Positions 18,953-62,865 of a stretch of DNA of 64,000 bases are shown here, one piece after another. The notes beneath the pieces are model-generated. The model did no database searches, had not been told where the DNA came from, and saw only the letters and a program-made list of their open reading frames with translations. Both the position numbers and the translations under genes were made by a program. The stretch's first letter is position 1, and each line of letters begins with the position of its first letter. Location: NCBI GenBank assembly GCA_965207265.1, contig OZ242279.1, positions 4,174,145 to 4,238,144 on the forward strand. Direction: 5' to 3'. This DNA comes from Vicinamibacterales bacterium (GTDB lineage Bacteria; Acidobacteriota; Vicinamibacteria; Vicinamibacterales; UBA8438).

Positions 18953-18992
18953 ACCGAGATGCTGAGGCCACGGGGCTGAGGCTTGGCCGGCG

Positions 18993-37536: not shown

Positions 37537-37589
37537 GTCTTCCCGATGGACGCCCATACTACTACGCGGCGCCGCTTCCGGCACCGCTC

Positions 37590-41375: not shown

Positions 41376-42437
41376 ATGCGTGGATTGCGTCGCGGAGTCG
41401 TGATTGTGCTGGCGGCGGCCGGAATCGTTGCCTGGCCGGGCGCGTTGCAGGCACAGGAAGGGCCGGAAGCCGGGCGTGGCTACCCGGCCGGGGAGTGGCC
41501 GTTGGTTGGGGGTGACTGGTCGAGCTCGCGTTACTCGAGCCTGGACGACATCACTCTCGATACGGTCGACCGGCTCGGCGGGGCCTGGGCGACGCCGCTG
41601 CCCGGCGGCGCGGCCTCGCGGGCGACGCCGGTCATGCGAGACGGCATCCTGTATCTGACCGCCGGGGCCAACGTATTCGCGATCGATGCCCGGACCGGCG
41701 AGACGCTTTGGCGCTGGCAGCCGCCGCCCGACGAGCCGCTGATGGTTCCGTCCTGGCAGGGCGTCGGGCTGGGGGATGGACTGGTCTTCGTCGGTCTGCG
41801 GAGCGCCCACGTGATTCCCAGCCCGCTGCTCGGCACGAGCGGTCCGCTGACGACAGCCGGAGGCCTGATGTTCCGCGGATCGCCGGGCGGCCAGGTCGAG
41901 GCCTACGACGCCCGGACCGGCGAGCGCGTGTGGGCGTTCCAGACCACCCCGGCAGGGGCGCGGGTGCGGCCGGGCCCCGCCGCCGCCTACGAGCTGAACG
42001 ATGAGCAGTTCATCGCGATTCCGATGGGCCGCGAGCTGTGGGCGTTTGCGCTCGACGGGGCTGTCGCCGCGCGGGGCGAGGTGCCGGCGGATCCGTGGGC
42101 CGACCTCGAGCCGTCCGGCCCCGCGCCGCGCGCCACCGACGCCATCGAGACCGCGACCCTAATGGAGAATCCCTCCTGGTCGGTGGGCGGCCGGCGCTAC
42201 GCCATCGACGAGCACGCCTTCAATCCGGTGCGCGCCCGGGTCACGGCCGGCGCGCGCGTCCGGTTCGTCAACAACGGCGAGCTGGCACACACCGTGGCCG
42301 CGCGCGACGGGAGCTGGACCACCGGCGCGCTCCAGCCGGCAACATGGGAGGTCGTGGCCTTCGACGAGCCCGGCACGTTCCGGTACCACTGCACGGAGCA
42401 TCCATGGGCGGTAGGCGAGATCACGGTCGAGCCCTGA
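41376..42437 (+). CDS. Internally deleted paralog of the PQQ-propeller/cupredoxin fusion proteins (intact ORF, possibly degenerate)
   Basis: It has a signal peptide. Residues 1 to about 145 align with the N-terminus of the 687-aa paralogs at 53554 and 55703. Residues about 150-353 align with their last 205 residues. About 334 central residues are missing, and the junction is near nt 41800-41835. Confidence 0.65.
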   Translation: MRGLRRGVVIVLAAAGIVAWPGALQAQEGPEAGRGYPAGEWPLVGGDWSSSRYSSLDDITLDTVDRLGGAWATPLPGGAASRATPVMRDGILYLTAGANVFAIDARTGETLWRWQPPPDEPLMVPSWQGVGLGDGLVFVGLRSAHVIPSPLLGTSGPLTTAGGLMFRGSPGGQVEAYDARTGERVWAFQTTPAGARVRPGPAAAYELNDEQFIAIPMGRELWAFALDGAVAARGEVPADPWADLEPSGPAPRATDAIETATLMENPSWSVGGRRYAIDEHAFNPVRARVTAGARVRFVNNGELAHTVAARDGSWTTGALQPATWEVVAFDEPGTFRYHCTEHPWAVGEITVEP

Positions 42438-42480
42438 GGCGGAGCAGGGGCGACAATCGAACCGCCAACATCAGCGTACC

Positions 42481-46537: not shown

Positions 46538-48721
46538 ATGGAGCCCATCATGCCTGGACTCTTCAGATCGCAGACGTTCATCCCTTGCGTCGCCATGGCT
46601 GCCTTGCTGCTGACCGCCGCCGCCGCACCGGCGCAACGGCTGACCGGAACCGAGAACGGCGAGTGGCGTTACCTCGGCGGCGACGCCGGCCACACCCGCT
46701 CGTCGGCCCTGGACCAGATCGACGGCGACAACTTCTCCGACCTGGAGGTGGCCTGGATCTGGCGGGGCGACAACTTCGGGCCCAACATCGACTACTTCAA
46801 CCGCTCGACGCCGATCTACGTGGACGGCGTCGTCTATACGGTGTCCTCGCCGCGGCGGCAGGTGGTGGCGATCGATCCCGCCACCGGCGAGACGCTCTGG
46901 ACCTTTCGCGAGCCCGAGAGCGTCCGGCACCTGCGCTCGCCACGCCAGGCCTACGGCAAGGGGGTGGCCTACGCCGAGGTGAACGGCCGCGGGGTGATCT
47001 TCGTTACCAGTCCCGCCTTCTTCCTCTGGGCGCTCGACGCCGAGACCGGCCGTCCCCTGGAGAACTGGGGCCGCCCGATCCCGCTCGACGGCTTTCCGCA
47101 GTCCGGCGGCCTCGACCTGATCCCGCCGCTCGTCGAGGACTGGGGACGCTGGCTCGACCGCGCCGCCAGCTACGACCCGGGCTACGGCATTCCGCGGGAG
47201 CTGGGCATGGTCACCGCCTCGGCGCCGCCCATCGTGGTGAACGGGGTGGTCGTCGTGCTCGTCGGGCACCAGCCCAGCTACGGGCAGACCCGCATCGAGA
47301 ACGTCCCCGGCGACGTCATGGGCTTCGACGCCGCGACCGGCGAGTTCCTCTGGAAGTTCCACATGATCCCCCGCCCCGGCGAGTTCGGGCACGAGACGTG
47401 GCACAACGAAGCCTGGCAGTGGTCGGGCGACATGTCGACGTGGGCGCCGGCCTCCGCCGACCCGGAACTGGGGCTCGTCTACCTCGTCACGAACGCCTCG
47501 ACCGTGCAGAGCTACGCCGGCCACCGGCCGGGCGACAACCTGTTCGGCGGCTGCGTCCTCGCGCTCGACGTCAGGACGGGAGAGCGGCGCTGGCACTTCC
47601 AGATCCACCGTAGCGACCAGTGGAACTACGACCTGCCGACCGCACCGATCCTGATGGACCTGACGGTGGACGGCGAGCGCATCCCGGCGCTGATCCAGAA
47701 CACCAAGCAGGGGCTCGTATTCGCCTTCAACCGCGAGACCGGCGAGCCGATCTGGCCGATCGAGGAGCGGGAGGTCATCCAGACCGAGGTGCCCGGCAAC
47801 TACACCTCGCCCCGCCAGGCTTATCCGACCCGGCCCGAGCCGGTCGACCCCATCGTGCTGACGGGGCTGACCGAGGAGTTCGTCATCGACTACACCCCGG
47901 AATTGAAGCAGGAGGCGCTGGCGATCCTGGAGCACTACCGGGTCGGGGGGCTCTACGTCCCGGCGCTGCCCGAGAACCATCACAACGATTTCTACAACAA
48001 CGTCGGCTGCCTCGGCGGCGGCAACATCATTCCCCACCCGCCGGTCGCCGACCCGAGCACCGGGATGATGTTCAACTCGCACCGCCGGAGCTGCAACGCC
48101 CCGTCGTTCATGCGAGCCACCGGCGGTGTCGACACGGACAACCCCGACTACGCGCGGCCCGGCCCCGGGGGCGCCACGCCCAATTCGACGCCCACCACCG
48201 GCACGACCGTCGCCGCGTGGCTTCCGGGCGGGTTCCGCCGCCCCACCCCCGAGCAGGAGCCGTTCGTTTCGGTGAGCGGCCTGCCGAGAATCGACGGCCT
48301 GCGGCTCTACAAGCCGCTGGACAACCAGCTCACCGCGTACCGGATGAACACCGGGGAGAAGGCGTGGTCGCTGCCGGTCGGCGAGACGGCGCAGGTGATC
48401 CGCGAGCATCCGCGGCTGGCCGGTGTGGACATCCCGAACGCGGGAGGCGCCGGCTTCTCGATCCAGTTGGTGACCGGCGACCTGCTGGTGCAGACCCGCG
48501 CGCTCAGCGAGGGGACGCGGCAGATCGTGCCGGACGCGCCGCTGCTGCTGCACGGCCGCGACAAGTACACCGGCGAGATCCTCGGCAGCGTCGAGCTCCC
48601 TGCGCCCGGGCAGTACGGCATGATGACCTACCTGCACGAGGGGAAGCAGTACATCGTGGTGCAGATCGGGAGCATTCAGACCGGCTTTCCCGGTTCGCTC
48701 GTGGCCTACGCGCTGCCGTAG
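46538..48721 (+). CDS. Exported PQQ-dependent dehydrogenase-like eight-bladed propeller protein
   Basis: It has a signal peptide, 'GEWRYLGGDAGHTRSSALDQIDGDNFSDLEVAW', 'ALDAETGRP', 'IPRPGEFGHETW' and 'DNLFGGCVLALDVRTGERRWHFQIHRSDQWNYD'. These are quinoprotein dehydrogenase motifs. Confidence 0.75.
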   Translation: MEPIMPGLFRSQTFIPCVAMAALLLTAAAAPAQRLTGTENGEWRYLGGDAGHTRSSALDQIDGDNFSDLEVAWIWRGDNFGPNIDYFNRSTPIYVDGVVYTVSSPRRQVVAIDPATGETLWTFREPESVRHLRSPRQAYGKGVAYAEVNGRGVIFVTSPAFFLWALDAETGRPLENWGRPIPLDGFPQSGGLDLIPPLVEDWGRWLDRAASYDPGYGIPRELGMVTASAPPIVVNGVVVVLVGHQPSYGQTRIENVPGDVMGFDAATGEFLWKFHMIPRPGEFGHETWHNEAWQWSGDMSTWAPASADPELGLVYLVTNASTVQSYAGHRPGDNLFGGCVLALDVRTGERRWHFQIHRSDQWNYDLPTAPILMDLTVDGERIPALIQNTKQGLVFAFNRETGEPIWPIEEREVIQTEVPGNYTSPRQAYPTRPEPVDPIVLTGLTEEFVIDYTPELKQEALAILEHYRVGGLYVPALPENHHNDFYNNVGCLGGGNIIPHPPVADPSTGMMFNSHRRSCNAPSFMRATGGVDTDNPDYARPGPGGATPNSTPTTGTTVAAWLPGGFRRPTPEQEPFVSVSGLPRIDGLRLYKPLDNQLTAYRMNTGEKAWSLPVGETAQVIREHPRLAGVDIPNAGGAGFSIQLVTGDLLVQTRALSEGTRQIVPDAPLLLHGRDKYTGEILGSVELPAPGQYGMMTYLHEGKQYIVVQIGSIQTGFPGSLVAYALP

Positions 48722-49490: not shown

Positions 49491-51239
49491 TCAGGGCAGC
49501 CGGAAGACCCAGAGCATGTTGCCGCGCGGCGGCTGTTGGATCTCCGGCGTGACCATCCGGTAGTTGACGCCGCCCCCGGCCGCGATGGCGACGTACTGCA
49601 CGCCGTCGTGCATGTAGCTCACCGGGAAGCCGCCGGCGCTGGAGTTGAGGATCCGCTCCCAGAGGATGTCGCCGGTCTCCGCGTCGAACGCCCGGAAGCG
49701 GCGCGCATCGTCGGTCACGAACACCAGTCCGCCGCCGGTCGTCAGCACCGAGCCGCCGATGCCGGCCCGCTGCCGATGGACCCACCGCGTTCCGCCGGTC
49801 GCCATGTCCATCGCCGTGAGCATGCCGACCTGCCCGTCGACGTCCGGGGCCACCTCGCGGGTGGCCCGCGCCGACCCGTGGTGGAAACCCGGGCGGTTGC
49901 GGAACTCGTTCAGCGTCAGGGTCATGCAGACGTTGTTGGTGGGCGCGTACAGGGCGTTGGTGCCCGGGTGGTAGGCGGTCGCGTTCCAGTTGATGCCGCC
50001 GGTCAGGCTCGGGCAGACGAAGACCGGCTCGCCGACCTGCGGGAACTTGAGATCCTCGTTGAGGAGCACGCGGCGGCTCTCGGCATCGACGTCGGCCACC
50101 ACGTTCTGCCGGTTCGTCGGCTCGGCCCAGAGAAACGCCCCGGTGGCGGCGTCGAGCGCCCAGACGATGCCGGTCTTGCCCGGGATGCCGGTCACGATCT
50201 TGCGGCGCGAGCCGGGGATGATCCCGCCGTTCAGCCACTCGACCGCGTCGGGGTCCGGCGACACCTCGGTCTCGACCACGAGCCGGGCGTAGGGATGATC
50301 GAGGTCCCATTCGTCGTTCGGGGTGTGCTGGAAGTACCAGACTATCTCGCCCGTGTCGGCGTCGAGGGCGAGGGTGGAGTTCGTATAGAGGACGTCCCCG
50401 TCACCGGTGCCGCGCTGCACCGAGCCCCACGGAATCGGCACCCCGACGCCGGCGTAGATCAGGTTCAGCTCGGGGTCGTAGCTCGGCGCGTTCCACGAGG
50501 AGCCGCCGCGCCGCAGCTCGTCGGGGATGTCGCCCCACGAGTCGTAGCCGAACTCGCCTTCACGGGGAATCGTGTAGGTGCGCCATACCTCCTCGCCGGT
50601 CCCGGCGTCGTGGGCCGAGATCCAGCAGCGCGTGTTGAGGTAGTAGCAGCCCGACATCCCGGCCACGACGCGACCCTTGATGACCTGCGGCCCGCCGGAA
50701 TAGTGCTGGCCGACCTCCCAGTCGCCGACCGTGACATCCCACACCACCTCGCCGGTGCGCGCGTCGAGGGCCACCAGGTGGGCGTCGTGGGTGCCGATGA
50801 ACAGCTTGTCCTCGTAGAGCGTCCCGTTGCGGTTGGCGCAGGCCAGCGTGGCGCCGTGCTCGACCCGCGGCCGGCGGTACTCCCACAGGCGCGTGCCGTC
50901 GCGCACGTCGAGCGCCTCGACGTAATCGCACGCCTGCACCAGGAACATGACGCCGTCGTGGACCAGCGGCGTGGTCTCCTGCAGGCCCTCGGCCATTGTC
51001 CAGGCCCAGGCCAGGCGCAGGTCGCCCACGTTGGTCGTGTCGATCTGGTCGAGGGGGCTGTGGCCCCAGTGGTTGTAGGTACGCCGCCACATCGGCCAGT
51101 CGCTTGCCGGCGGCTCGACGAGCATCTGCTCGGTCACCGGGGTGTACTCGTCGATGGGGGATTGCGCCGAGACGACCGCTCCCGCGAGCAGAAGGCACGC
51201 CGCGATCAGGCCGGGAATGGTTCGGAGAAGCTGTCGCAT
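49491..51239 (-). CDS. Exported PQQ-dependent dehydrogenase, methanol/ethanol family-like
   Basis: It has a signal peptide, 'DWPMWRRTYNHWGHSPLDQIDTTNVGDLRLAW', 'LVALDARTGEVVWD', 'LALDADTGEIVWYFQHTPNDEWDLD' and 'FRAFDAETGDILWE'. Confidence 0.8.
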   Translation of the reverse strand: MRQLLRTIPGLIAACLLLAGAVVSAQSPIDEYTPVTEQMLVEPPASDWPMWRRTYNHWGHSPLDQIDTTNVGDLRLAWAWTMAEGLQETTPLVHDGVMFLVQACDYVEALDVRDGTRLWEYRRPRVEHGATLACANRNGTLYEDKLFIGTHDAHLVALDARTGEVVWDVTVGDWEVGQHYSGGPQVIKGRVVAGMSGCYYLNTRCWISAHDAGTGEEVWRTYTIPREGEFGYDSWGDIPDELRRGGSSWNAPSYDPELNLIYAGVGVPIPWGSVQRGTGDGDVLYTNSTLALDADTGEIVWYFQHTPNDEWDLDHPYARLVVETEVSPDPDAVEWLNGGIIPGSRRKIVTGIPGKTGIVWALDAATGAFLWAEPTNRQNVVADVDAESRRVLLNEDLKFPQVGEPVFVCPSLTGGINWNATAYHPGTNALYAPTNNVCMTLTLNEFRNRPGFHHGSARATREVAPDVDGQVGMLTAMDMATGGTRWVHRQRAGIGGSVLTTGGGLVFVTDDARRFRAFDAETGDILWERILNSSAGGFPVSYMHDGVQYVAIAAGGGVNYRMVTPEIQQPPRGNMLWVFRLP

Positions 51240-51662: not shown

Positions 51663-52172
51663 TTGTATCGTGGTGTACGGCCGATGACCATGAACGAGTG
51701 GGCCAGGAATCAACAGGAACGCCGCCGCCGGTTCGACGACGAGGCGCGGAGCTGCAAGCTCAAGCCGCCCGAGGCCTTCAGTGACGAGCCCGCCCCCCCG
51801 GAGGCGTACCGGAACCTCTGTCCCGATCTCGATCCGGCGCTCACTGGCCGGAGGAGCCATGTGGTCCGTTGGCGCATCGCCCGAAGCTGCTGCGGCTGGG
51901 CGGAGCCGCCCACGACCGAAGAGTTCTACGACGCCTTCCACACGGACACACCCGACCAGCGGCAGAAGAGCATCATCTACATGTGGGGTACCGAAGCCAC
52001 CTTCACGGAGCTCTTCGAAGCCTGGGCGCAGCACGCCTACACGTTCCGCGACCTCGTGCGTGCGCTCCACCTGGCCGACTTCCCGTGGCCGGACCGGATC
52101 GCGGAAATCAACCAGTGGGCCGATCCCCATCACGTCGAGCAGGAGCCAAGTCAGACGCGCATCGCCGAATAG
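51663..52172 (+). CDS. Hypothetical protein
   Basis: This is a 169-aa ORF with the GC3-rich codon usage of the host. I recognise no family. Its 3' end overlaps the convergent flavoprotein gene by about 20 nt. Confidence 0.45.
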   Translation: MYRGVRPMTMNEWARNQQERRRRFDDEARSCKLKPPEAFSDEPAPPEAYRNLCPDLDPALTGRRSHVVRWRIARSCCGWAEPPTTEEFYDAFHTDTPDQRQKSIIYMWGTEATFTELFEAWAQHAYTFRDLVRALHLADFPWPDRIAEINQWADPHHVEQEPSQTRIAE

Positions 52173-53413
52173 ACCGCCATGTGCGCGCCCACGACGCGCT
52201 GCAGCGCGTCCTGATTCGGCTCTCGCGACCACTCGCCCCGCTCCGACGTGCCGCCCAGGACGATGCCGTCGCGGCGCGGCTGCATGTGGATGCCGAGGAG
52301 CCCGCGGGTATCCCCGTCGGGAGGGTCGCCGGCGATACCCCAGTCGACTTCCTGCTGGGGCACGAGCACGGTGAGCTGGCCCTTCAGCGGCAACAGCTCG
52401 TCGTCGCCGAACAGGTCGCGCGCGCCCAGCCCGCTGCAGTTGACGACGAGCGGCTCGCTCAGCTCCACCAGCTCGCGCACCTCGGTGAACTTGCGGATCT
52501 CGATGCGCCCGCCGAAGTCGATGAAGTCGTGAACCAGTGCATCCAGGTAGATGGACGGCTCGATGCGCATTTGGTTGCGCCGGATGGCGTAGCGGCTGGG
52601 AAAGGGGTGCTCCCCGGGTTCCAGCGTGAGCTGGCCGGAGCGCAGATGGGCGGGAAGCAGCGGCTCTCGATCCTCCTCGCCATCGTCCTCGGCGGCGCCC
52701 GGGGGCGAGTCGCTGAGAGCGTAGCGATCGATCCAGGAAACGCCGAATCTGGTCCCCGCCAGCAACTGCAGCTCGCGGTAGGAAGTCTCGACCGCTTCGC
52801 GGAACTGGGCATCCCAGGCAGGTGTCCTGAGGTCGCCGTCGACCAGCCCCGCGGTGGGGGTGAAGCCTGCGAACGACATGTTCGAGGTCGTGTTCGGCGG
52901 CACCGACATGGCGTAGATGGTCACCGCGAACCCGCGCCGCTGCAACTGGCGCGCGGCGGTGAGGCCCACGGCACCGCAACCGATGACCGCCGCCCGGCGG
53001 CTGTCGTGGTCGAGGGCCATTTCGGCCGCCATCCGGCCCGTGCCCCAGGAGAGCGACATGCCGGAGCCGCCGTGGCCGTAATTCTGGATCACCGTGGTGC
53101 CGTCGAGCCGGTCGGCGCGCAATACGAAGCCGGAGGGGCGGTGCGGGCGCAACCCGACCGTGGTGCGGATGATCCGGTCCCATTCGGCGCGTACGGGTGC
53201 GAGCCGCAGAGGCGGCCGCCGCATCGGCGTCGGCGCGGTCGGCGCCGGAGCCGACCGTGCCGAGCAGCCGCCCAGGCCGGCGCCCACGAGGCCCATGCCG
53301 CCCATCTTCAGGAGCGTTCTTCGGTCCACTGTGCCTCCGGGTTCAGTCGCGCCGGGTGTCATGGCGGTCTCGTTACGGACACCCATCTTGGATCGTCCAT
53401 CCATGGCGGGCAA
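52151..53413 (-). CDS. Tat/lipoprotein-type exported FAD-dependent oxidoreductase, D-amino-acid-oxidase (DAO) family, circularly permuted
   Basis: The leader 'DRRTLLKMGGMGLVGAGLGGC' is followed by 'GLRPHRPSGFVLR...TVIQNYGHGGSGMSLSWGTG', which is normally the C-terminal DAO signature. Only after that comes the Rossmann 'AAVIGCGAVGLTAARQLQRRGFAVTIYA'. The TTG start at 53413 is uncertain; alternatives include the internal Met of 'MTPGA' at about 53362. Confidence 0.75.
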   Translation of the reverse strand: MPAMDGRSKMGVRNETAMTPGATEPGGTVDRRTLLKMGGMGLVGAGLGGCSARSAPAPTAPTPMRRPPLRLAPVRAEWDRIIRTTVGLRPHRPSGFVLRADRLDGTTVIQNYGHGGSGMSLSWGTGRMAAEMALDHDSRRAAVIGCGAVGLTAARQLQRRGFAVTIYAMSVPPNTTSNMSFAGFTPTAGLVDGDLRTPAWDAQFREAVETSYRELQLLAGTRFGVSWIDRYALSDSPPGAAEDDGEEDREPLLPAHLRSGQLTLEPGEHPFPSRYAIRRNQMRIEPSIYLDALVHDFIDFGGRIEIRKFTEVRELVELSEPLVVNCSGLGARDLFGDDELLPLKGQLTVLVPQQEVDWGIAGDPPDGDTRGLLGIHMQPRRDGIVLGGTSERGEWSREPNQDALQRVVGAHMAVYSAMRV

Positions 53414-53436
53414 CTCCGCTCGGTTGGCGGGCCCGG

Positions 53437-53465
53437 GTTCGGCAGAATGTTGGGGGCTGCCGAAC
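53437..53465. promoter_or_regulatory. Perfect 9-bp inverted repeat in a divergent promoter region (candidate operator)
   Basis: GTTCGGCAG-N11-CTGCCGAAC lies in the 140-nt gap between the divergently transcribed DAO-like gene (start 53413) and PQQ-cupredoxin copy A (start 53554). Confidence 0.35.
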
Positions 53466-53553
53466 TCTGTGGTTGAATGGAACGCGTCACAAACGCAGCA
53501 GCCCGCGCGCTGCCGTAGCGCCGCGCTGCCGGAGACCGGAAAAGGAGGGCGCC

Positions 53554-55617
53554 ATGCCTCGACGTCATCGCTCGCTCGTCGTCACGGTCGCGTCGGTGAT
53601 CGCGCTCGCGGTGTTCTCCGGCGGCCTCGCCGGGCAGGAGCCCGAGCCGGGACGCGGCTATCCGTCGACCGACTGGCCCTTTGCCGGCGGCAACTGGGCC
53701 AGCTCGCGCTACTCCACGCTGGACGACATCGCGGCCGACACGGTGGATCGCCTCGGCGCTGCGTGGGTGGCGCCGCTCCCCGGCGGCGCGGCGTCGCGCT
53801 CGACCCCGGTGGTGCAGGACGGCGCCATCTACCTGACCGGCGGCGCCAACGTCTTCGCCTTCGACGCGCGAACGGGAGACCTCGTCTGGCGCTGGCAGCC
53901 GGACCCCGATGCCGGGCGGGTGGTGTCGTGGCAGGGCGTCGTCGTGGCCGGCGACCTGGTCGTCTTCGGCACGCGCAGCGGAGAGGTGATCGCGCTCGGC
54001 CGGGACAACGGCGAGCTGGTGTGGGCGACGCGCGTCGGGAGCCCGGAGCAGACCCGGGGCGAGGTGGTGACGACCGCGCCGATGTACGCGCGCGGCAAGG
54101 TGTTCGTGGGCCTGGCCAACGGCGACATCGGCGGACAGGGCCGCGTGCTGGCCCTCGACGCGGCGACGGGCGAAGTGGAGTGGATCTTCTTCGTCGTGCC
54201 GCGGCCGGGCGAGTTCGGCCACGAGACCTGGCCGCAGGACAGCGACTCGTGGGAGTACGGCGGCGGCGGCGTCTGGCTGGTCGGCACCGTCGATCCCGAC
54301 CTGGGGATGGTCTACTTCTCGACCGGCAACCCGGTGCCGATGTTCGGGGGCGAGCTGCGCGAGGGGGATAACCTGTTCACCGCTTCGGTCCTCGCGCTCG
54401 ACATGGAGACCGGCGAGCGGCGCTGGCACTACCAGGTGGTGCGCCACGACGTCTGGGACGCCGACATCGCCACGCCGCTGCTGCTGTACGACACGACGGT
54501 CGACGGCGAGCCGGTGAAGGCGGTGGCCGCGATGCGCGCCGACGGCTATCTGTTCCTGTTCAACCGCGAGACCGGCGAGCACCTGCTGCCCGTCGAGGAG
54601 CGCGAGGTGCCGCAGGACCCGCACCAGCTCACGGTGCCGACCCAGCCGTTCCCGGTGCAGACCGAGAGCATCCTCTTCGAGTGCTCGTACTGGCGCGACC
54701 GGGTGCCGCCGCCGTTCGAGCTCAGTTGCAGCAGCTACACGCCCCCGTCGGTCGACGAGCAGACGGTGGTGGCGCCGGGGTTGCCGATCCCGCGGGTGCG
54801 GGTCACGCCGATGGCGTTCTCGCCGCAGACCGGCTACATCTACGCGCAGGGGCGCGCGCACGTCGGCCGCGCCCGCCGCTTCACGGATCCGTTCGTCTGG
54901 AACACTACCCAGTTCCACCTGACCCTGCCCGACGCCGTCGGCATCCTGGCCGCCGTCGACCCCCGCACCGGCCGCGTGGTGTGGCGGAAGGAGATGCCGG
55001 CCGCGTTCCTCGGCGTCAGCGGTCCGCTCGTGACCGCGGGCGGCCTGCTGTTCCGCGGCTCGCCCGGCGGACAGGTGGAGGCCTACGACGTCCGGACCGG
55101 CGACCGCCGCTGGGCCTTCCGGACGAGCGAGGAGGGGTCGCGGCTGCGTCCCGGCCCGGCCTCGACCTACGAGCTGGACGGCAGGCAGTACATCGCCGTC
55201 CCGATGGGGCCCGCGCTCTGGGCGTTCGCGCTCGACGGCGAGGTGCCGGCCCGCGGCGAGCCGTCTCCGGATCCGCCGGTGGACGATCAGCCCGCCGGCC
55301 CCGCCCCGCGCGAGACCGCCGAGATCGAGACGGCGACGCTGCTGGAGAACCCGCGCGGCGCGGTCGGCGGCCGGCGCTACGCCTTCGACGAGTACAACTT
55401 CAACCCGATCCGCGCGCGGGTCAGCGCGGGCACGCGCGTCCGGTTCACCAACAACGGCGAGATCTCCCACACCGTGGCCGCGCGCGACGGAAGCTGGAGC
55501 GCCGGCACGCTGAACCCGGGCCTGTGGGGCTTCGTCACGTTCGACGAGCCGGGGACGTTCCTCTACCACTGCGAGGACCATCCCTGGATGGTGGGGGAGA
55601 TCACGGTCGATCCGTGA
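53554..55617 (+). CDS. Exported PQQ-dependent dehydrogenase-like propeller fused to a C-terminal amicyanin-like type-1 copper domain (copy A)
   Basis: This is the in-frame part of track ORF 53197..55617, starting at ATG 53554 after AAAGGAGGG. It has a signal peptide and propeller motifs ('GGNWASSRYSTLDDIAADTVDRLGAAW', 'VPRPGEFGHETW', 'LALDMETGERRWHYQVVRHDVWDAD'). The C-terminal approx. 100 aa carry 'ISHTVAARDG' and 'FLYHCEDHPWMVGEITV'. Confidence 0.8.
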   Translation: MPRRHRSLVVTVASVIALAVFSGGLAGQEPEPGRGYPSTDWPFAGGNWASSRYSTLDDIAADTVDRLGAAWVAPLPGGAASRSTPVVQDGAIYLTGGANVFAFDARTGDLVWRWQPDPDAGRVVSWQGVVVAGDLVVFGTRSGEVIALGRDNGELVWATRVGSPEQTRGEVVTTAPMYARGKVFVGLANGDIGGQGRVLALDAATGEVEWIFFVVPRPGEFGHETWPQDSDSWEYGGGGVWLVGTVDPDLGMVYFSTGNPVPMFGGELREGDNLFTASVLALDMETGERRWHYQVVRHDVWDADIATPLLLYDTTVDGEPVKAVAAMRADGYLFLFNRETGEHLLPVEEREVPQDPHQLTVPTQPFPVQTESILFECSYWRDRVPPPFELSCSSYTPPSVDEQTVVAPGLPIPRVRVTPMAFSPQTGYIYAQGRAHVGRARRFTDPFVWNTTQFHLTLPDAVGILAAVDPRTGRVVWRKEMPAAFLGVSGPLVTAGGLLFRGSPGGQVEAYDVRTGDRRWAFRTSEEGSRLRPGPASTYELDGRQYIAVPMGPALWAFALDGEVPARGEPSPDPPVDDQPAGPAPRETAEIETATLLENPRGAVGGRRYAFDEYNFNPIRARVSAGTRVRFTNNGEISHTVAARDGSWSAGTLNPGLWGFVTFDEPGTFLYHCEDHPWMVGEITVDP

Positions 55618-55702
55618 ACCGTCGGGCCTGGGAATGAAGGGAGTTGCTCGCCGGGGCGCCCTGACCGCCCTGCGACTGGAGACCGGAGAAGAGGAGGGTG
55701 CC

Positions 55703-57766
55703 ATGCCTCGACGTCATCGCTCGCTCGTCGTCACGGTCGCGTCGGCGGTCACGCTCGCGGCCCTCGTGGTCGGCCTCGCCGGACAAGGGCCAGAGCCGGG
55801 TCGCGGCTATCCCTCGACCGACTGGCCCTTCACCGGCGGCAACTGGTCCAGTTCGCGCTACTCGACGCTGGACGAGATCGCCGTCGACACGCTCGATCGC
55901 CTCGGCGCCGCGTGGGTGACGCCGCTCCCCGGCGGCGCGGCGTCGCGCTCGACCCCGGTGGTGCAGGATGGCGCCATCTACCTGACGGGCGGCGCCAACG
56001 TGTTCGCCTTCGACGCGCGCACGGGCGATCTCATCTGGCGCTGGCAGCCCGATCCCGACGCAGGGCGGGTGGTGTCGTGGCAGGGCGTGGTCGTGGCCGG
56101 CGACCTGGTCGTCTTCGGGACGCGCAGCGGGGAGGTGCTCGCGCTCGGCCGCGACAGCGGCGAGCTGGTGTGGGCGACGCGCGTCGGTAGCCCGGAGCAG
56201 ACCCGGGGCGAGGTGGTGACGACCGCGCCGATGTACGCGCGCGGCAAGGTGTTCGTCGGCCTCGCGAACGGCGACATCGGCGGGCAGGGCCGCGTGCTGG
56301 CCCTCGACGCGGCGACCGGCGAGGTGGCGTGGACCTTCTTCGTGGTGCCACGGCCGGGCGAGTTCGGCCACGAGACCTGGCCGCAAGACAGCGACTCGTG
56401 GGAGTACGGCGGCGGCGGCGTCTGGCTGGTCGGCACGGTCGATCCCGACCTGGGGATGGTCTACTTCTCGACGGGCAACCCGGTGCCGATGTTCGGGGGC
56501 GAGCTGCGCGAGGGGGACAACCTGTTCACCGCCTCCGTACTCGCGCTCGACATGGAGACGGGCGAGCTGCGCTGGCACTACCAGGTGGTGCGCCACGACA
56601 TCTGGGACGCCGACATCGCCACGCCGCTGCTGCTGTACGACACGACGGTCGACGGCGAGCCGGTAAAGGCGGTGGCCGCGATGCGGGCCGACGGCTACCT
56701 CTTCCTGTTCAACCGGGAGACGGGCGAGCCGTTGCTGCCCATCGAAGAGCGCGAGGTGCCGCAGGACCCGCACCAGCTCACGGTGCCGACCCAGCCGTTC
56801 CCGACGCAGACCGAGACCATCCTCTTCGAGTGCTCGTACTGGCGCGACCGGGTGCCGCCGCCGTTCCAGCTCAACTGCAGCAGCTACACGCCGCCGTCGG
56901 TGGACGAGCAGACGGTCGTCGCACCCGGGGTGCCCATCCCGCTGGTGCGGGTCACGCCGCTGGCGTTCTCGCCCGATACCGGCTACATCTACGCCCAGGG
57001 CCGCGCGCACGTCGGCCGCGCCCGCCGCTTCGCGGATCCGTTCGTCTGGAACACCGCGCGGTTCCACCTGACGCTGCCCGACGCGGTCGGTGTGCTGGCC
57101 GCCGTCGACACCGCGACCGGCCGCGTGGTCTGGAAGAACGAGATGCCGAGCGCGTTCCTCGGCACTAGCGGTCCCCTCGTCACCGCGGGCGGCCTGCTGT
57201 TCCGCGGCTCGCCCGGCGGACAAGTGGAGGCCTACGACGTCCGGACCGGCGACCGTCGCTGGGCCTTCCGCACGAGCGAGGAGGGGTCGCGGTTGCGTCC
57301 GAGCCCGGCGTCGACGTACGAGCTGGACGGCAGGCAGCACATCGCCATCGCGATGGGGCCCGCGCTCTGGGCATTTGCCCTCGACGGTCCGGTGCCGGCG
57401 CGCGGCGAGCCGTCGCCCGACCCGCCGGTGGACGATCAGCCCGCCGGCCCCGCCCCCCGCGAGACCGACGAGATCGAGACGGCGACCCTGCTCGAGAACC
57501 CGCGCGGCTCGGTCGGCGGCCGGCGCTATGCGTTCGACGAGTACAATTTCAACCCGATCCGCGCGCGGGTCAGCGCGGGCACGCGCGTCCGGTTCACCAA
57601 CAACGGCGAGATCCCCCACACCGTGGCCGCGCGCGACGGAAGCTGGAGTGCCGGCACGCTGAACCCGGGCCTGTGGGGCTTCGTCACGTTCGACGAGCCG
57701 GGGACGTTCCTCTACCACTGCGAGGACCATCCCTGGATGGTGGGGGAGATCACGGTCGATCCGTGA
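55703..57766 (+). CDS. Exported PQQ-dependent dehydrogenase-like propeller fused to a C-terminal amicyanin-like type-1 copper domain (copy B)
   Basis: This is the in-frame part of track ORF 55634..57766, starting at ATG 55703 after GAGGAGGG. It has the same 687-aa length as copy A and the same Cu-ligand pattern ('IPHTVAARDG', 'YHCEDHPWM'). Confidence 0.8.
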   Translation: MPRRHRSLVVTVASAVTLAALVVGLAGQGPEPGRGYPSTDWPFTGGNWSSSRYSTLDEIAVDTLDRLGAAWVTPLPGGAASRSTPVVQDGAIYLTGGANVFAFDARTGDLIWRWQPDPDAGRVVSWQGVVVAGDLVVFGTRSGEVLALGRDSGELVWATRVGSPEQTRGEVVTTAPMYARGKVFVGLANGDIGGQGRVLALDAATGEVAWTFFVVPRPGEFGHETWPQDSDSWEYGGGGVWLVGTVDPDLGMVYFSTGNPVPMFGGELREGDNLFTASVLALDMETGELRWHYQVVRHDIWDADIATPLLLYDTTVDGEPVKAVAAMRADGYLFLFNRETGEPLLPIEEREVPQDPHQLTVPTQPFPTQTETILFECSYWRDRVPPPFQLNCSSYTPPSVDEQTVVAPGVPIPLVRVTPLAFSPDTGYIYAQGRAHVGRARRFADPFVWNTARFHLTLPDAVGVLAAVDTATGRVVWKNEMPSAFLGTSGPLVTAGGLLFRGSPGGQVEAYDVRTGDRRWAFRTSEEGSRLRPSPASTYELDGRQHIAIAMGPALWAFALDGPVPARGEPSPDPPVDDQPAGPAPRETDEIETATLLENPRGSVGGRRYAFDEYNFNPIRARVSAGTRVRFTNNGEIPHTVAARDGSWSAGTLNPGLWGFVTFDEPGTFLYHCEDHPWMVGEITVDP

Positions 57767-57789: not shown

Positions 57790-59217
57790 GTGAGTGCGAA
57801 GAAGCTGGGCGGGTCGATGCTTTCGGCGGCGCTGCTGTTGGCCACACTAGGCCTCGGCGCCGGCGCCCAGGACACGCGGCTGCTCGACGCGGCCCGGGCG
57901 GCGGACTCGATGCGGGTGATGGCCCTTCTCGACCAGGGTGTCGCGGCGAATACCCGGCAGGCGGATGGCGCGACCGCCCTGCACTGGGCTGCCCACTGGG
58001 ACGATGCAACGATGGCGGACGCCCTCCTCGGGGCCGGCGCCGACGTAGACGCGGCGAACGACTTCGGCGCCACGCCGCTCTGGCTGGCCTGCCTCAACGG
58101 CAGCGAGACGATGGTCGCGGCCCTGCTGGCGGCCGGCGCCGACGCGAACGCCGCGCTGCCTTCGGGAGAGACGGTGCTGATGACCGCGTCCCACACCGGG
58201 TCGGCCAAAGCGGTGCGCCTGCTCGCGTCCCACGGGGCGGACCTGAACGCCCGGGAGCACACGCGGGGGCAGACGGCGCTGATGTGGGCGGTGGCCCAGC
58301 AGCATCCCGACGTGGTGGAGAGGCTGGTCGCGCTCGGGGCCGACGTCCATGCCCGCTCGGCCCCCCAGCCCCGGCGCATCCACACGCGGACCGCCGGGTT
58401 CAACCCGAGCGGGGTGATCGACACCGTGCTGGGCAGCAACACGCCGATCCTGTTCGCGGCCCGGCAGGGCAACCTCGAAGCCGCCAGGCACCTCGTGGCC
58501 GGGGGCGCCGACGTGAACGACACGGCGGCGACGGGCACCAGCGCACTCGTCGTCGCGGCGCACAGCGGCCATACGGCGCTCGCCCTGTTCCTGCTCGAGC
58601 AGGGCGCCGACCCGAATGCGGCCGAGGCCGGCTACTCCGCCCTGCACGCCGCCACGCTGCGCGGCGACGAGACGCTGACGGCGGCGCTGCTCGCGCGCGG
58701 CGCGGATCCGAATGCACCGGTGGTCCGTGGCAGCCAGGGCCGGCGCAACAGTCCCGACTACGTGCTGGATCACGATGTGGTCGGCGCCACCGCCTTCTGG
58801 CTGGCCGCACACTTCGCCGAGCCCGGCATCATGCGGGCGCTGGCCGACGGTGGAGCCGACCCGCAGATCGTGCTGGAGGACGGCAGGACGCCGCTGCTGG
58901 CGGCGGCAGCCGCCCGCCGCCGCCGGGAACCGGGACTGGCCCCGAACCCCGTTGAGGACGAACGGCTCGTGCTGGAAGCGGCGCGGACGGCGATCGAAGC
59001 GGGGGGCGAGGTCAACGCGGCGGATGCGGCCGGGAACACGGCGTTGCACACCGCTGCTCGGAGACGCCTCGACACAGTCGTCCAACTGCTGGCCGACAGC
59101 GGCGCCGACCTGCACGCCGTGAACGACAACGGGCAGACGCCGTTGGAGGTGGCCCGCGGGCGCGCTGGCCGCGACAACAGCACCGTCGAGCTGCTGCGCC
59201 GCCTCGGGGACGGCTAG
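57790..59217 (+). CDS. Exported ankyrin-repeat protein (paralog 3 of 3)
   Basis: A GTG start at 57790 (after GGAGGA) or ATG at 57817 is followed by the signal-like 'MLSAALLLATLGLGAGAQ'. It is collinear with the two other ankyrin proteins ('ADGATALHWAAHWDDATMADALLGAGADVDAANDFGATPL'). Confidence 0.8.
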   Translation: MSAKKLGGSMLSAALLLATLGLGAGAQDTRLLDAARAADSMRVMALLDQGVAANTRQADGATALHWAAHWDDATMADALLGAGADVDAANDFGATPLWLACLNGSETMVAALLAAGADANAALPSGETVLMTASHTGSAKAVRLLASHGADLNAREHTRGQTALMWAVAQQHPDVVERLVALGADVHARSAPQPRRIHTRTAGFNPSGVIDTVLGSNTPILFAARQGNLEAARHLVAGGADVNDTAATGTSALVVAAHSGHTALALFLLEQGADPNAAEAGYSALHAATLRGDETLTAALLARGADPNAPVVRGSQGRRNSPDYVLDHDVVGATAFWLAAHFAEPGIMRALADGGADPQIVLEDGRTPLLAAAAARRRREPGLAPNPVEDERLVLEAARTAIEAGGEVNAADAAGNTALHTAARRRLDTVVQLLADSGADLHAVNDNGQTPLEVARGRAGRDNSTVELLRRLGDG

Positions 59218-59847: not shown

Positions 59848-62800
59848 ATGGTCGAAATCCGCGTTCGTGCACGCACCCTCGACATGCTCGGCCGCCAACA
59901 GATCGCCGGTGTGCCTACCGCAATCAGCGAGCTCTTCAAGAACTCCCACGACGCATACGCCCACAATGTGGAAGTGGATTTCTTTCGCCGTTCTGGGTTG
60001 TTCGTCCTGCGAGACGATGGGATTGGCATGTCGTATCGAGATTTTGTGGAACGATGGTTGACGCTCGGCACCGAGAGCAAGCTGAGCGCTAACCTCGGAG
60101 GCGTCTCTCAGCCACCTTCCGACCCTAGCCAAGCCAGCCGTCCAATCATGGGCGAGAAGGGGATCGGTCGCTTAGCGATCGCTGCGATTGGGCCCCAGGT
60201 GCTCGTCCTTACGCGTGCTAAGGCATCCGAAGAAGCCGACCATCTCGTTGCCGCCTTCATTCACTGGGGCGCATTTAGTCTCCCTGGCGTCGACCTGAGT
60301 GCCATCCAGATTCCCGTTCGGCTGTTGTCGGGGGGCACGTTGCCGTCAGCCGACGAAGTCTCCAGCATGGTCGCGGAGGTGCGAGAGAATATCACGGGTG
60401 TGGCTGTTGGCCTGCCGTCTTCGCTACCGGCTCGAATTCTAGCAGACCTCGACCGCTTTGATGTCGTTGTAGATGAGCTGTACGAGCGGCTTCCAGCCGG
60501 GCCGACGCTACGCGACAAGAAGTACGGAACACATTTTATCATTCTGCCGACAGAAGAGATACTGCCCGACGACATCGATGGGCGTGGAAGCGACGACATC
60601 GCTCCACCACTGATCAAGGTGTTGGTCGGGTTTGCGAACACGATGACCCCTGGGCATCCGCCTGCTACAATACAGGCCCGGTTCCGTGATCACTTGCGTG
60701 ATGGTATAGTCCATGAACGGATAGCGGGCTCCGCGTTCTTCACGCCCGACGAGTTCCAAAAGGCCGACCATCACGTCTTAGGCGAGTTCGACGAGTTTGG
60801 CCAATTTCGGGGAACCGTCCAGGTCTACGGCGCGGAAGCCGTCGACTATCTCTTGCCGTGGCCGGAGGCAGGTGGTCATCCCCTCCTATGTGGTCCACTG
60901 AAGATTAGTTTTGCCTATGTGCAGGGTGAAGCGCGAGCAACGAAGCTGCCTCCAGAAGATCATGCCCGACTAGTCGCGAAGCTCAACCGCATTGGCGGCT
61001 TGTACATATACCGCGATGGGATCCGAATCCTCCCGTATGGGAACTCAGACTATGACTTCCTGAACATTGAACAGCGACGCACAAAGAGCGCATCGTATTA
61101 TTTTTTTTCGTATCGTCGCATTTTCGGCGTGATCGACATCACCCGTGACGCCAACCCGAACCTCGTTGAGAAGGCGGGACGCGAAGGCTTTCGCGAAAAC
61201 CGCGCTTATCGTCAACTTAAGCGTCTGCTTGAGAATTTCTTCGTGCAGTTGGCAGCAGAATTCTTTCGTGAGGGGGGGTTGCGCGCCGAAGAGTTCGTCA
61301 AGACGCGGGATGATCTGGAGCGCAAGGAACTCCTGCGTCGCCGTCGTGCTACACAGGTCCGGGTCCGTCGCGCCGAGTTCGCAAAACACTTGGACGCCTT
61401 TTTTGAGGCTGCGAACGCCCGCGAACCGGAAAGGGCAGTCGGAAGCCTCTTGGAAGCGGCCAGCGAGAGATTTGCGGGGCTCGCGTCGTCGGAAGGCGAA
61501 GATGATGTCGCGCGAATGCTCCTGGACCTAGAGCAGGAAGTCACCGGTGCGCTGGCCAACATCGATGCGAAGTACAAGGCACGGCAGCCCAGGGGGTTCG
61601 GTTTGACGCGCGCCTTGCAGCGCGACTGGGACGCTTATCGGGCGGAACGCAAGCGGCTCGAAGGGCAGGTCTTTCATCCAGCGGCTGCACGTTTGGCTGA
61701 CCTTGTCGCGCAGCACGCTGTGCGCATGCGGGTGCGGTTGGACCACCGCCGACGCGTACAGCGTGCGGTAGAGAAGGTTAGCGAGGTTCACCGCAAACGG
61801 GCCCGTTCCCTGCAGCGGGAGACGCTGGAAGAGATGGAGCGGGTACAGGCACGTGTTGTCTCCGGGATACGGGACGGACTGATTGTCGTGGAGTCTGCGG
61901 TCCGTGAAACGGTCAGCGAGTTAGAACGGACGGACACGAGTTCGTTGGATGCGAGCAGCTATGAACTATTGCGCCGTACTCTTGAGGACCGGATTGCCGT
62001 GGCGGTAGACGGCGAGGTGCGCAATATAGTGAAGTTGAGGGAACAACTACAAAGCGTGGGCACCAGGGAGGGTTTGGAGCAGGCCGAAATGACAGATGCT
62101 CTTGAGGAGGAGCTGGAAGCGTTGCGTGAGCGGGACACTGCGGGACTGCAGTTGGCGCAGGTTGGGATGGCGCTCGGCGTCGTGCACCACGAATTTGCGA
62201 GTACAATTCAAGGAGTAAGGAACGGGCTCCGACGGCTCAAACCGTGGGCTGATGCTAACGAGAAGCTTCGTGTGCTTTATGGAGATATTCGTTCGCACTT
62301 CGAGCACCTCGACGGCTATCTTACGCTGTTTACTCCGTTGGATAGGCGGTTGCAGCGTCGCCGCGTGCGAATGAGAGGGGAGGAGATTCTCCAGTTCCTC
62401 ATGGATCTCTTCGGTGAACGCCTAAAGCGGCATGCCACGGAGTTGAGCGCGACCGTGGCCTTCCGTGAGAGGACCATTGTAGGATTCCGCTCCTCATTCT
62501 ACCCATGCTTTGTGAACCTGGTGGACAATGCGATCTTCTGGGTTACAAGTGGAAGCCCTGCGCGAAGACGCGAAATCATCCTGGACGCCGATGGTGACGC
62601 CCTTACGGTAACGGACAGTGGACCGGGCATCGGTCCCCGTGACGCAGAGGCTGTCTTTGAAATGGGCTTTACACGGCGGCCCGGTGGGAGAGGCATGGGG
62701 TTGTATATCTCTCGTCAGGCACTGCGTCATGTAGGATACGACGTCACATTGGATGCATTCGAGAATAGTCGGGGAGCACGGTTCCGCGTCTCGGCATGGA

Positions 62801-62865
62801 AGGAGGCACGTGAGGGCGGGAGCGATGGAGGTCGTACGCAGAGGGAGGTGAAGGGTCGTGAATGA
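59848..62865 (+). CDS. Cytoplasmic hybrid GHKL protein: N-terminal MORC/Hsp90/MutL-type ATPase (HATPase_c_3-like), coiled coil, and C-terminal histidine kinase core (DHp H-box plus HATPase_c)
   Basis: N-terminal Bergerat motifs are 'ISELFKNSHDAYA' (E28/N32/D35), 'DDGIGM' (aa 56-61) and 'GEKGIGRLA' (aa 102-110). A Glu/Arg-rich helical region spans about aa 480-770. The H-box 'GVVHHEFASTI' has H780/H781 at nt 62185-62190. The N-box is 'NLVDNAIFW' (N890), G1 is 'DSGPGIG' (D923) and G2 is 'GGRGMGLYISR'. No hydrophobic TM segment is seen. Confidence 0.8.
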   Translation: MVEIRVRARTLDMLGRQQIAGVPTAISELFKNSHDAYAHNVEVDFFRRSGLFVLRDDGIGMSYRDFVERWLTLGTESKLSANLGGVSQPPSDPSQASRPIMGEKGIGRLAIAAIGPQVLVLTRAKASEEADHLVAAFIHWGAFSLPGVDLSAIQIPVRLLSGGTLPSADEVSSMVAEVRENITGVAVGLPSSLPARILADLDRFDVVVDELYERLPAGPTLRDKKYGTHFIILPTEEILPDDIDGRGSDDIAPPLIKVLVGFANTMTPGHPPATIQARFRDHLRDGIVHERIAGSAFFTPDEFQKADHHVLGEFDEFGQFRGTVQVYGAEAVDYLLPWPEAGGHPLLCGPLKISFAYVQGEARATKLPPEDHARLVAKLNRIGGLYIYRDGIRILPYGNSDYDFLNIEQRRTKSASYYFFSYRRIFGVIDITRDANPNLVEKAGREGFRENRAYRQLKRLLENFFVQLAAEFFREGGLRAEEFVKTRDDLERKELLRRRRATQVRVRRAEFAKHLDAFFEAANAREPERAVGSLLEAASERFAGLASSEGEDDVARMLLDLEQEVTGALANIDAKYKARQPRGFGLTRALQRDWDAYRAERKRLEGQVFHPAAARLADLVAQHAVRMRVRLDHRRRVQRAVEKVSEVHRKRARSLQRETLEEMERVQARVVSGIRDGLIVVESAVRETVSELERTDTSSLDASSYELLRRTLEDRIAVAVDGEVRNIVKLREQLQSVGTREGLEQAEMTDALEEELEALRERDTAGLQLAQVGMALGVVHHEFASTIQGVRNGLRRLKPWADANEKLRVLYGDIRSHFEHLDGYLTLFTPLDRRLQRRRVRMRGEEILQFLMDLFGERLKRHATELSATVAFRERTIVGFRSSFYPCFVNLVDNAIFWVTSGSPARRREIILDADGDALTVTDSGPGIGPRDAEAVFEMGFTRRPGGRGMGLYISRQALRHVGYDVTLDAFENSRGARFRVSAWKEAREGGSDGGRTQREVKGRE

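Follow-up and report, generated by a model that had tools for sequence, protein, structure and literature searches.

Tandem genes of a Vicinamibacterales bacterium encode predicted PQQ dehydrogenases joined to an amicyanin-like blue-copper domain

The window, i.e., the whole stretch of 64,000 nucleotides analysed here (contig OZ242279.1 of a Vicinamibacterales bacterium, positions 4,174,145 to 4,238,144, forward strand), contains two genes, copy A and copy B, whose products combine a signal peptide, a propeller of the pyrroloquinoline quinone (PQQ) dehydrogenase type, a linker and a C-terminal cupredoxin domain. The reading preferred here, with moderate confidence, is that each gene encodes a soluble periplasmic quinoprotein dehydrogenase carrying its own blue-copper electron acceptor. 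The kind is known (a quinoprotein dehydrogenase with a fused one-electron acceptor), the novelty being copper in place of haem. The fusion is not a curiosity of the window and belongs to a large unstudied family. No published description of a PQQ-cupredoxin fusion was found in 8 million open papers and preprints, subscription literature being outside this scope; the original prediction, made from the DNA alone, was likewise unaware of a characterised example. The parts of the tandem pair are the following.

53531..53553, + strand: leader upstream of copy A with ribosome-binding site, 5' edge of the duplicated unit (GGAGACCGGAAAAGGAGGGCGCC before A matches GGAGACCGGAGAAGAGGAGGGTGCC before B)
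53554..55617, + strand: copy A, 687 aa, signal peptide, PQQ propeller, linker and cupredoxin (open reading frame, translation, PF01011, PF00127)
53554..53634, + strand: predicted Sec-type signal peptide of copy A, aa 1-27 (MPRRHRS followed by 20 hydrophobic residues, probable cleavage between LAG and QEP), read from sequence
53662..55233, + strand: eight-bladed PQQ-dehydrogenase propeller of copy A, aa ~37-560 (PF01011, PDB alignments, Foldseek)
55234..55380, + strand: Pro/Asp-rich linker and first cupredoxin strands of copy A, aa 561-609 (sequence, lower model confidence)
55381..55614, + strand: amicyanin-like type-1 copper (cupredoxin) domain of copy A, aa 610-687 (PF00127, profile, Foldseek)
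55468-55470, 55570-55572, 55579-55581 and 55588-55590, + strand: predicted ligand codons of copy A for H639, C673, H676 and M679, respectively
55618..55702, + strand: spacer of 85 bp between the copies, with the ribosome-binding site of copy B
55703..57766, + strand: copy B, 687-aa paralogue with the same four parts (signal 55703-55783, propeller ~55811-57382, linker 57383-57529, cupredoxin 57530-57763)
57617-57619, 57719-57721, 57728-57730 and 57737-57739, + strand: predicted ligand codons of copy B for H639, C673, H676 and M679, respectively

A and B lie head to tail, each with 687 codons plus stop and with an ATG placed 7 nt after a GGAGG-type ribosome-binding site. The two collinear reading frames of equal length announced by the original prediction are those found, and they align without gap. 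Third-position GC in the frame of the fusion genes is 0.91, a value typical of real genes in a window of 70% GC. The motif 'I(S/P)HTVAARDG' contains His639, and 'YHCEDHPWM' begins at residue 671, so that Cys673 stands 34 residues after His639; the motifs that had been read in the two proteins are all in place. The linker, Pro-rich and of low complexity, includes GEPSPDPPVDDQPAGPAPRE at residues 568-587 of both A and B. The signal peptide of copy A has no lipobox Cys. Export by the Tat pathway, considered on account of 'RRHR', was rejected: the twin Arg is not kept in homologues and the residues that follow do not fit the motif.

PF00127 (Copper-bind, plastocyanin/azurin family) matches residues 615-685 with 23.8 bits for A, 25.8 for B and 30.8 for the domain alone (gathering cutoff 21.2). 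A profile of the C-terminal domain was built from 26 family members and searched against PDB. The top match is the C-terminal cupredoxin (residues 338-409) of the Nitrosopumilus multicopper oxidase 9cck (E 4.7e-24, loop 'YICTLHPWM'); amicyanin 1aac is retrieved with E 8.6e-15, and further matches are purple cupredoxin 5fc9, plastocyanins and pseudoazurins. His53, Cys92, His95 and Met98 of amicyanin align with H639, C673, H676 and M679, and the loops read 'YHCTPHPFM' and 'YHCEDHPWM', respectively. With an AlphaFold model of the domain only, the top 50 PDB matches of Foldseek are solely type-1 copper cupredoxins. The cupredoxin expected by the original prediction was thus recovered by profile, with the four ligands in register, and the non-copper beta-sandwich family that it had named as the contrary outcome was not seen. 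The predicted local distance difference test score (pLDDT) is 82-92 for the core of the domain-only model and about 90 for the cupredoxin within the full-length model; it is lower in the linker of both models.

The domain is classified by its sequence as amicyanin-like and not as amicyanin, TIGR02657 (amicyanin equivalog) giving 24.3 bits for the whole protein and 29.9 for the domain alone, i.e., far below its cutoff of 110.2. Neither protein contains a CxxCH haem motif or a cytochrome Pfam match. Each has just three Cys (377, 392 and 673); a haem c site is thus absent. Conservation was followed in 79 related loci kept from a species-representative genome set, nearly all of them metagenome-assembled genomes (MAGs) of Vicinamibacterales/Vicinamibacteria and a few labelled 'Acidobacteria bacterium' or 'uncultured bacterium'. 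The three trigonal ligands are kept in nearly all genomic copies (H639 in 88/90, C673 in 87/89, H676 in 89/89).

The propeller is matched by PF01011 with 275.2 bits (A, E 1.7e-81) and 273.9 bits (B), the gathering cutoff being 26.7. Its closest PDB match is the lanthanide-dependent PedH 6zcv (E 1e-63), followed by the quinohaemoprotein alcohol dehydrogenases (ADHs) 1kb0, 1kv9 and 1yiq, and by XoxF. The top 30 Foldseek matches of the full-length AlphaFold model are all PQQ dehydrogenases. The PQQ-dehydrogenase-type propeller that had been predicted is confirmed by these matches; it is related to the methanol/ethanol type, although outside the curated limit of that subfamily (TIGR03075, see below). 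The active site was mapped by combining alignments to PedH, 1kb0 and 1kv9 with residue roles in methanol dehydrogenase (MDH), whose numbering and roles we take to be as follows.

Asp303 of MDH, catalytic base: D302 in the window proteins, kept
Asn261, metal ligand: N259, kept
Trp243, stacking under PQQ: W241, kept
Arg331 (Lys in 1kb0), near the base: R328, kept
Thr159, hydrogen bond to PQQ: T173, kept
Ala305 (Asp in XoxF), position of the lanthanide-type Asp: D304 ('HDVWDAD'), Asp present
Cys103-Cys104, vicinal disulfide on PQQ: none, loop deleted
Glu55, hydrogen bond to PQQ: R82, changed
Arg109, hydrogen bond to PQQ: Q127, changed
Glu177, metal ligand: D191, changed

All mapped positions, changed or kept, are identical in 90/90 full-length copies from the 79 loci. 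The PQQ pocket is therefore derived and at the same time strictly constrained, which favours a working over a decayed active site. Binding of PQQ by the propeller is likely, not certain, since the vicinal disulfide is missing and the pocket is non-canonical. An Asp placed two residues past the catalytic Asp (Asp-x-Asp) distinguishes lanthanide-type from calcium enzymes (preprint 10.64898/2026.07.10.737718). D302 and D304 ('WDAD') are invariant, i.e., this pattern is present throughout; the dehydrogenase is thus probably of the lanthanide type, and because of Asp-x-Asp the metal would most likely be a lanthanide.

It must be added that C377 and C392 (codons 54682-54684 and 54727-54729 in copy A) are invariant in the Vicinamibacterales family and present in most relatives of 38-48% identity, and that in the alignment the canonical relatives with Cys-Cys lack them. 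The two may be joined by a clade-specific disulfide within the loop ECSYWRDRVPPPFELSCS.

The mechanism proposed would comprise the following steps: (i) the protein is exported via Sec and its cofactors are inserted in the periplasm; (ii) the propeller binds PQQ, which in Vicinamibacteria would be imported and not made, together with a metal, most likely a lanthanide; (iii) Asp302 acts as base in the oxidation of an alcohol, aldehyde or sugar, which yields PQQH2; (iv) the tethered type-1 Cu(II) re-oxidises PQQH2 in two one-electron steps; (v) Cu(I) passes each electron on to a periplasmic cytochrome or a terminal oxidase. The presumed direction of transfer, from PQQ to copper, is thermodynamically reasonable, since the potentials of PQQ couples are close to +90 mV and those of type-1 copper sites usually well above this value. 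The interpretation given by the original prediction, i.e., a quinoprotein with a covalently fused copper acceptor, is supported as far as computation reaches.

The family to which A and B belong is large. A word-index search for relatives at E <= 1e-10 found 5609, of which the best 120 were examined. These 120 are 65-94% identical; 115 have 683-709 aa, three have 726-745 aa, and P0023 and P0118 are shorter, with the C-terminal sequence out of frame. Where relatives are named, they are called 'PQQ-binding-like beta-propeller repeat protein' or, wrongly, 'alcohol dehydrogenase (cytochrome c)'. Many genomes contain multiple paralogues, often in tandem, and the gene family is greatly expanded in Vicinamibacterales. 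These findings agree with two published accounts: marine Acidobacteria MAGs reportedly contain up to 70 lanthanide-type PQQ dehydrogenases (PMC11996626), and Vicinamibacteria are reported to encode the PQQ importer PqqU without PQQ biosynthesis (PMC12124388).

An exhaustive search of 50%-identity representatives retrieved the PQQ-cupredoxin architecture down to 32-49% identity. The survey of the fusion suggested by the original prediction thus shows that the architecture recurs widely, is abundant in Vicinamibacterales and Chloroflexota and is not peculiar to the window. In a Chloroflexota/Thermomicrobiales family (e.g., MBV9175216.1, P0146), 103/103 full-length clusters have Cys-Cys, NRG and Asp-x-Asp, the axial Met is present in 91/92 clusters with a recognisable Cys-x2-His-Pro-x-Met loop, and haem is found in none. 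Judged from these motifs, there is little doubt that the canonical Chloroflexota form is a PQQ enzyme joined to a blue-copper site. Chloroflexota fusions share with the window proteins the architecture, the length (~695-715 aa), Asp-x-Asp and the lack of haem; they differ in being only ~35% identical to the window proteins and in keeping Cys-Cys, NRG and, almost always, the axial Met. They are named methanol/ethanol family at NCBI, whereas the Vicinamibacterales proteins are given as 'PQQ-binding-like beta-propeller repeat protein'.

Some of the distant relatives have a third domain. A cytochrome c is added at the C-terminus of P0124, P0126, P0129, P0130, P0131, P0132 and P0166, and at the N-terminus of P0137. 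In five of these eight three-domain relatives the copper ligands are lost and the fold is kept, as if haem had replaced copper. When the C-terminal 105 aa were used alone as word-index query, only 24 short fragments of the same fusions and two small free cupredoxins were retrieved. P0154, P0204 and P0223 (1029-1154 aa) consist of 7-10 tandem cupredoxin domains, most of them with the full His/Cys/His/Met set, and each repeat resembles the C-terminal domain of the window proteins.

Several points weigh against the preferred reading, and they bear in turn on the propeller, on the copper and on the electron partner. Occupancy by PQQ, metal and copper is in each case predicted. The full-length AlphaFold model is of moderate quality (pLDDT 72, predicted template modelling score 0.74). 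The PQQ pocket departs from that of every characterised methanol/ethanol-type enzyme aligned (Cys-Cys loop gone, Glu55->Arg82, Arg109->Gln127, Glu177->Asp191), and the CC...NRG motif is found in 0/119 family clusters. The score for NCBIfam TIGR03075 (methanol/ethanol family) is 310.2 bits, below the cutoff of 480, and the best NCBIfam match, TIGR04528 'acido-empty-quinoprotein group A', reaches 319.9 bits, below its cutoff of 650. These departures, together with the reported lack of pqq biosynthesis in Vicinamibacteria (PMC12124388), speak for an 'empty' or re-purposed propeller, i.e., a binding or scaffold module with no PQQ or with another ligand, the cupredoxin being the sole redox centre and the whole protein a tethered blue-copper carrier. 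This explanation is nevertheless improbable. The invariance of Asp302, Asn259, Asp191, Asp304, Trp241 and Arg328 in 90/90 copies would be difficult to account for if there were no active site; TIGR04528 itself is missed by a wide margin (320 vs 650 bits); PQQ can be imported via PqqU in Vicinamibacteria (PMC12124388); and the new Arg82 may replace the lost Arg109 in contact with the PQQ carboxylate.

As for the copper, the axial position is occupied by Ala in 68/89 and by Met in 21/89 genomic copies, and by Ala in 111 and Met in 3 of the 114 clusters with a Cys-x2-His-Pro loop. The axial Met of the original prediction is thus right for the window, both copies having M679, but it is not a feature of the family: since Met is in the minority across it, the window proteins represent a minority state. 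The axial codon is only ATG (Met) or GCG (Ala), a two-step change without Val or Thr intermediates (loci L001-L010, L021, L022, L031 and L073). Relatives of 32-49% identity have Met, Ala, Ser, Thr or Val at this position. Some relatives are without any copper ligand, i.e., the fold persists without copper. The His/Cys/His trio is kept in 3/8 relatives with a haem motif vs 16/19 without; the association of haem with ligand loss gives a Fisher's p of 0.027 when fragments are counted and of 0.35 with full-length proteins only. It is thus suggestive that ligands were lost mostly where a haem domain is present; as a firm rule this was dropped, the significance hinging on the counting of fragments.

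One may ask whether the cupredoxin is a copper-free structural domain serving as linker or docking module, the electrons leaving PQQ directly to a separate carrier. The dominance of axial Ala speaks for this possibility, as does the loss of Cys and/or His with retention of the fold in P0126, P0127, P0129, P0130, P0131, P0156 and P0192 (32-44% identity). We consider it quite unlikely: A and B have all four ligands, 87-89 of about 90 copies in the family retain His, Cys and His, and linker plus cupredoxin show a ratio of nonsynonymous to synonymous substitution rates (dN/dS) of 0.13. Moreover, structures of M98A amicyanin with Cu(II) and Cu(I) (2idq/2ids) are among the matches of the domain, and crystallisation of this mutant in both states means that Ala is compatible with a copper site. 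With copper bound, its potential is probably tuned by the axial residue, which is Met here, mostly Ala in the family, and Ser, Thr, Val or Gln in other cases.

The third group of points concerns the partner. Across the related loci no conserved neighbouring cytochrome or oxidase was found that could act as downstream acceptor, and in the window no cytochrome c, oxidase or pqq gene adjoins the fusions. A cluster of neighbouring proteins labelled 'cytochrome' was rejected as partner: one open reading frame (in L035) has a cytochrome c stretch (CELCH), and the other 27 are without CxxCH. The absence of a conserved partner, the dominant axial Ala and the nature of the closest relatives of the domain (the Nitrosopumilus purple cupredoxin 5fc9 and the multicopper oxidase domain 9cck) would fit a catalytic copper with an open axial position, in the Ala type and perhaps in the Met type, reacting with O2, NO or nitrite. 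The protein would then be an oxidase or reductase fed by PQQH2 and not a relay. 5fc9 is said to have a type-1 centre with an open binding site. The chances of such a catalytic role are small: neither a second metal site nor an additional cluster of conserved His is present, the axial residue of both window copies is Met, and the relatives with an appended cytochrome c argue for a relay. The dehydrogenase with a built-in blue-copper acceptor therefore remains the preferred reading, and it is compared below with known systems.

In characterised PQQ dehydrogenases the electron acceptor is a cytochrome c (free or fused), ubiquinone, or a free blue-copper protein, for example azurin. The type II quinohaemoprotein ADHs, i.e., ADH IIB and ADH IIG of Pseudomonas putida HK5 and the quinohaemoprotein ethanol dehydrogenase (qhEDH) of Comamonas testosteroni (1kv9, 1yiq and 1kb0), are close in organisation. 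They too are soluble periplasmic single polypeptides, in which an eight-bladed PQQ propeller is connected by a Pro-rich linker to a small one-electron redox domain at the C-terminus, and the propeller of the fusions aligns with them over residues ~35-555 (E 1e-66 to 1e-70). In these enzymes the cytochrome c domain takes electrons from PQQH2. The fusions differ in that: (i) they carry a cupredoxin and no CxxCH; (ii) they are without the vicinal Cys-Cys; (iii) the metal-ligand Glu is Asp; (iv) the extra Asp points to a lanthanide and not to Ca. PedH (6zcv/6zcw), XoxF (4mae/6dam) and ExaF are the best sequence and fold matches and share the second Asp ('HDVWDAD' vs 'HDGWDFD'). Unlike the fusions, they have no fused acceptor, use separate cytochromes and keep the Cys-Cys disulfide and the equivalents of Arg109 and Glu177, which are changed in the window proteins.

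On the side of the copper domain, amicyanin has nearly the same copper loop, and its four ligands align. It is the dedicated blue-copper acceptor of a periplasmic quinoprotein, methylamine dehydrogenase, and the same role is proposed for the domain described here; in contrast, it is a free protein of 105 aa, and its partner uses tryptophan tryptophylquinone and not PQQ. The family members with Ala at the position of Met98, i.e., most of them, are natural counterparts of the M98A mutant (2idq). The PQQ-cupredoxin-cytochrome c relatives P0124 and P0132 resemble the relay of methylamine dehydrogenase, amicyanin and cytochrome c551i in one chain. A type-1 copper domain fused C-terminally to a redox enzyme is also known in the Nitrosopumilus maritimus multicopper oxidase 9cck and in the Thermus scotoductus NirK 6hbe. 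In both, however, the catalytic partner is a copper enzyme and the tethered domain donates electrons, whereas in the window fusions the partner is a quinoprotein and the cupredoxin would be expected to accept them.

The two copies are 92.9% identical in protein (639/688 aligned positions, the stop being counted) and 92.5% in nucleotides, with 154 base differences in 2064 positions, 98 of them at third positions. Among the 137 codons that differ, 88 differences are synonymous and 49 nonsynonymous, in line with the remark, made on first reading, that the copies differ largely at synonymous sites. The Nei-Gojobori method gives dN 0.039, dS 0.207 and dN/dS 0.19, similar to the 0.09-0.22 of orthologue comparisons. 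Per segment the ratio is 0.17 in the propeller and 0.13, as given above, in linker plus cupredoxin; the signal peptide alone evolves freely. Purifying selection acts on both copies, and the idea that both are maintained gains further weight from the recurrence of the duplication in other genomes.

The duplicated unit has 2149 bp and runs from ~23 nt before the start to the stop codon. Beyond it the flanks are unrelated; the similarity of A and B is lost upstream of 53531..53553. The nearest genomic relative is L001 (chromosome OZ220736.1), with 98% protein and 96-98.5% DNA identity across the region, and its megablast match also begins at 53531. The same tandem pair exists in three independent MAG assemblies (L001, L003 and L004), two of which are chromosome-level. 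Whether trees are built from the full gene or from its first 1700 nt, the B copies of the window, L001, L003 and L004 fall into a single clade, whose sister group comprises every A copy together with the single-copy orthologues (L002, L005-L010). The duplication is thus older than about ten species-level lineages. The pair is kept in at least four of these, and in the others the second copy was lost or moved outside the examined 6-kb flank. Mis-assembly, which the original prediction had named as a possible source of the duplication, is hardly credible: repeats in MAGs can be mis-assembled, but this is the only ground for it, and it is opposed by the divergence of 7.5%, by the three further assemblies with the same arrangement and by the separate clade of B copies. 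The tandem duplication is genuine.

A different tree is obtained with the last 315 nt (cupredoxin): sequences group by Met/Ala type, and A and B of one genome come together. Over their last ~190 nt A and B share 99% identity, compared with 84-97% in other parts. This short segment is suggestive of gene conversion between the tandem copies and of exchange of cupredoxin segments between lineages. A bolder proposal can be built on it, which we regard as speculative and rather unlikely as a whole. The fusions would form an unrecognised enzyme class, 'quino-cuproproteins', with transfer from a lanthanide-PQQ dehydrogenase to a tethered type-1 copper, and the Met/Ala axial switch of Vicinamibacterales would be adaptive: recombination of the cupredoxin segment would pass it from one lineage to another and make tandem copies uniform. 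The switch would retune the potential or open the copper to a small-molecule co-substrate, the Ala forms being self-contained oxidases or reductases.

Five PQQ-propeller genes, both fusions included, are located within 17 kb of the window. The other three, and the gene that follows copy B, are listed here.

41376..42437, + strand: third fusion gene, paralogue of the ~72% type with axial Ala (Pfam PQQ N-terminal fragment and cupredoxin; BLASTP vs copy A)
46538-48721, + strand: PQQ protein of 727 aa, no cupredoxin
49491-51239, - strand: PQQ protein of 582 aa, no cupredoxin
57817..59217, + strand: secreted ankyrin-repeat protein, 50 nt past copy B (Pfam Ank families)

By comparison with its intact orthologue (L039, OZ220736.1), the third fusion gene has an in-frame deletion of 1005 bp (residues ~147-480, junction 41815/41816, 2-nt microhomology). 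The whole active site is removed, while signal peptide, first blades, last blade, linker and an intact cupredoxin stay in frame. Its end is overlapped by ~20 nt by a gene for a predicted AAA-ATPase (PF09820) with a PD-(D/E)XK nuclease domain (PF08011), 42415-44034 (+). The gene of the 727-aa PQQ protein has counterparts directly upstream of the fusion gene in many related loci. Divergently upstream of copy A lies a flavin adenine dinucleotide (FAD) oxidoreductase gene of the DAO family (52142-53530). It is present in 24 other related loci and has no DNA or protein match in L001 (compared 4257-5976), the nearest genome, which is otherwise collinear.

Within the 83-98% clade, an orthologue of the ankyrin gene immediately follows the fusion in 25 loci (28 give a match); beside more distant paralogues it is not conserved. 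The synteny is thus a property of close relatives and is no proof of a functional link to the fusion. The protein has a signal-like N-terminus and is one of three large ankyrin-repeat proteins of the window, at 17300-19114 (-), 35953-37734 (-) and 57817-59217 (+). In a scan of 53.0-59.6 kb no promoter-like site was found, and the only terminator-like site of the + strand is at 59332, after the ankyrin gene, with none between A and B; the scan is at most weak support for co-transcription of A, B and the ankyrin gene. An Rfam scan of the whole window gave no match.

Another conserved protein of ~330-420 aa, without Pfam match, adjoins fusion paralogues in 23 loci of L040-L078 (e.g., L040 4757-5836, L049 3519-4622, L071 4879-5955) and has no counterpart in the window; the open reading frame of L035 adds its cytochrome c stretch before the ~330-aa domain. 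Towards the end of the window (60001-64000) GC decreases from ~0.70 to 0.59-0.61, with a GC skew up to +0.20 in the last 2 kb. The gene at 59848-62865 (+) encodes 1005 aa with an N-terminal HATPase_c_3, HEF_HK and a C-terminal HATPase_c and has no counterpart in the 79 related loci; this region may be acquired DNA.

If true, the covalent PQQ-copper pair would represent a new way for PQQ dehydrogenases to hand off their electrons, and it would provide a compact two-centre system for studies of quinol-to-copper electron transfer and a candidate haem-free module for direct-electron-transfer biosensors. The natural Met/Ala/Ser/Thr/Val axial series is a ready-made experiment in the tuning of type-1 copper potentials. 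The fusion is found in soil and marine Acidobacteria, which are abundant and hard to culture. It is relevant to the coupling of carbon oxidation with respiration in these bacteria, and to their need of lanthanides, copper and scavenged PQQ.

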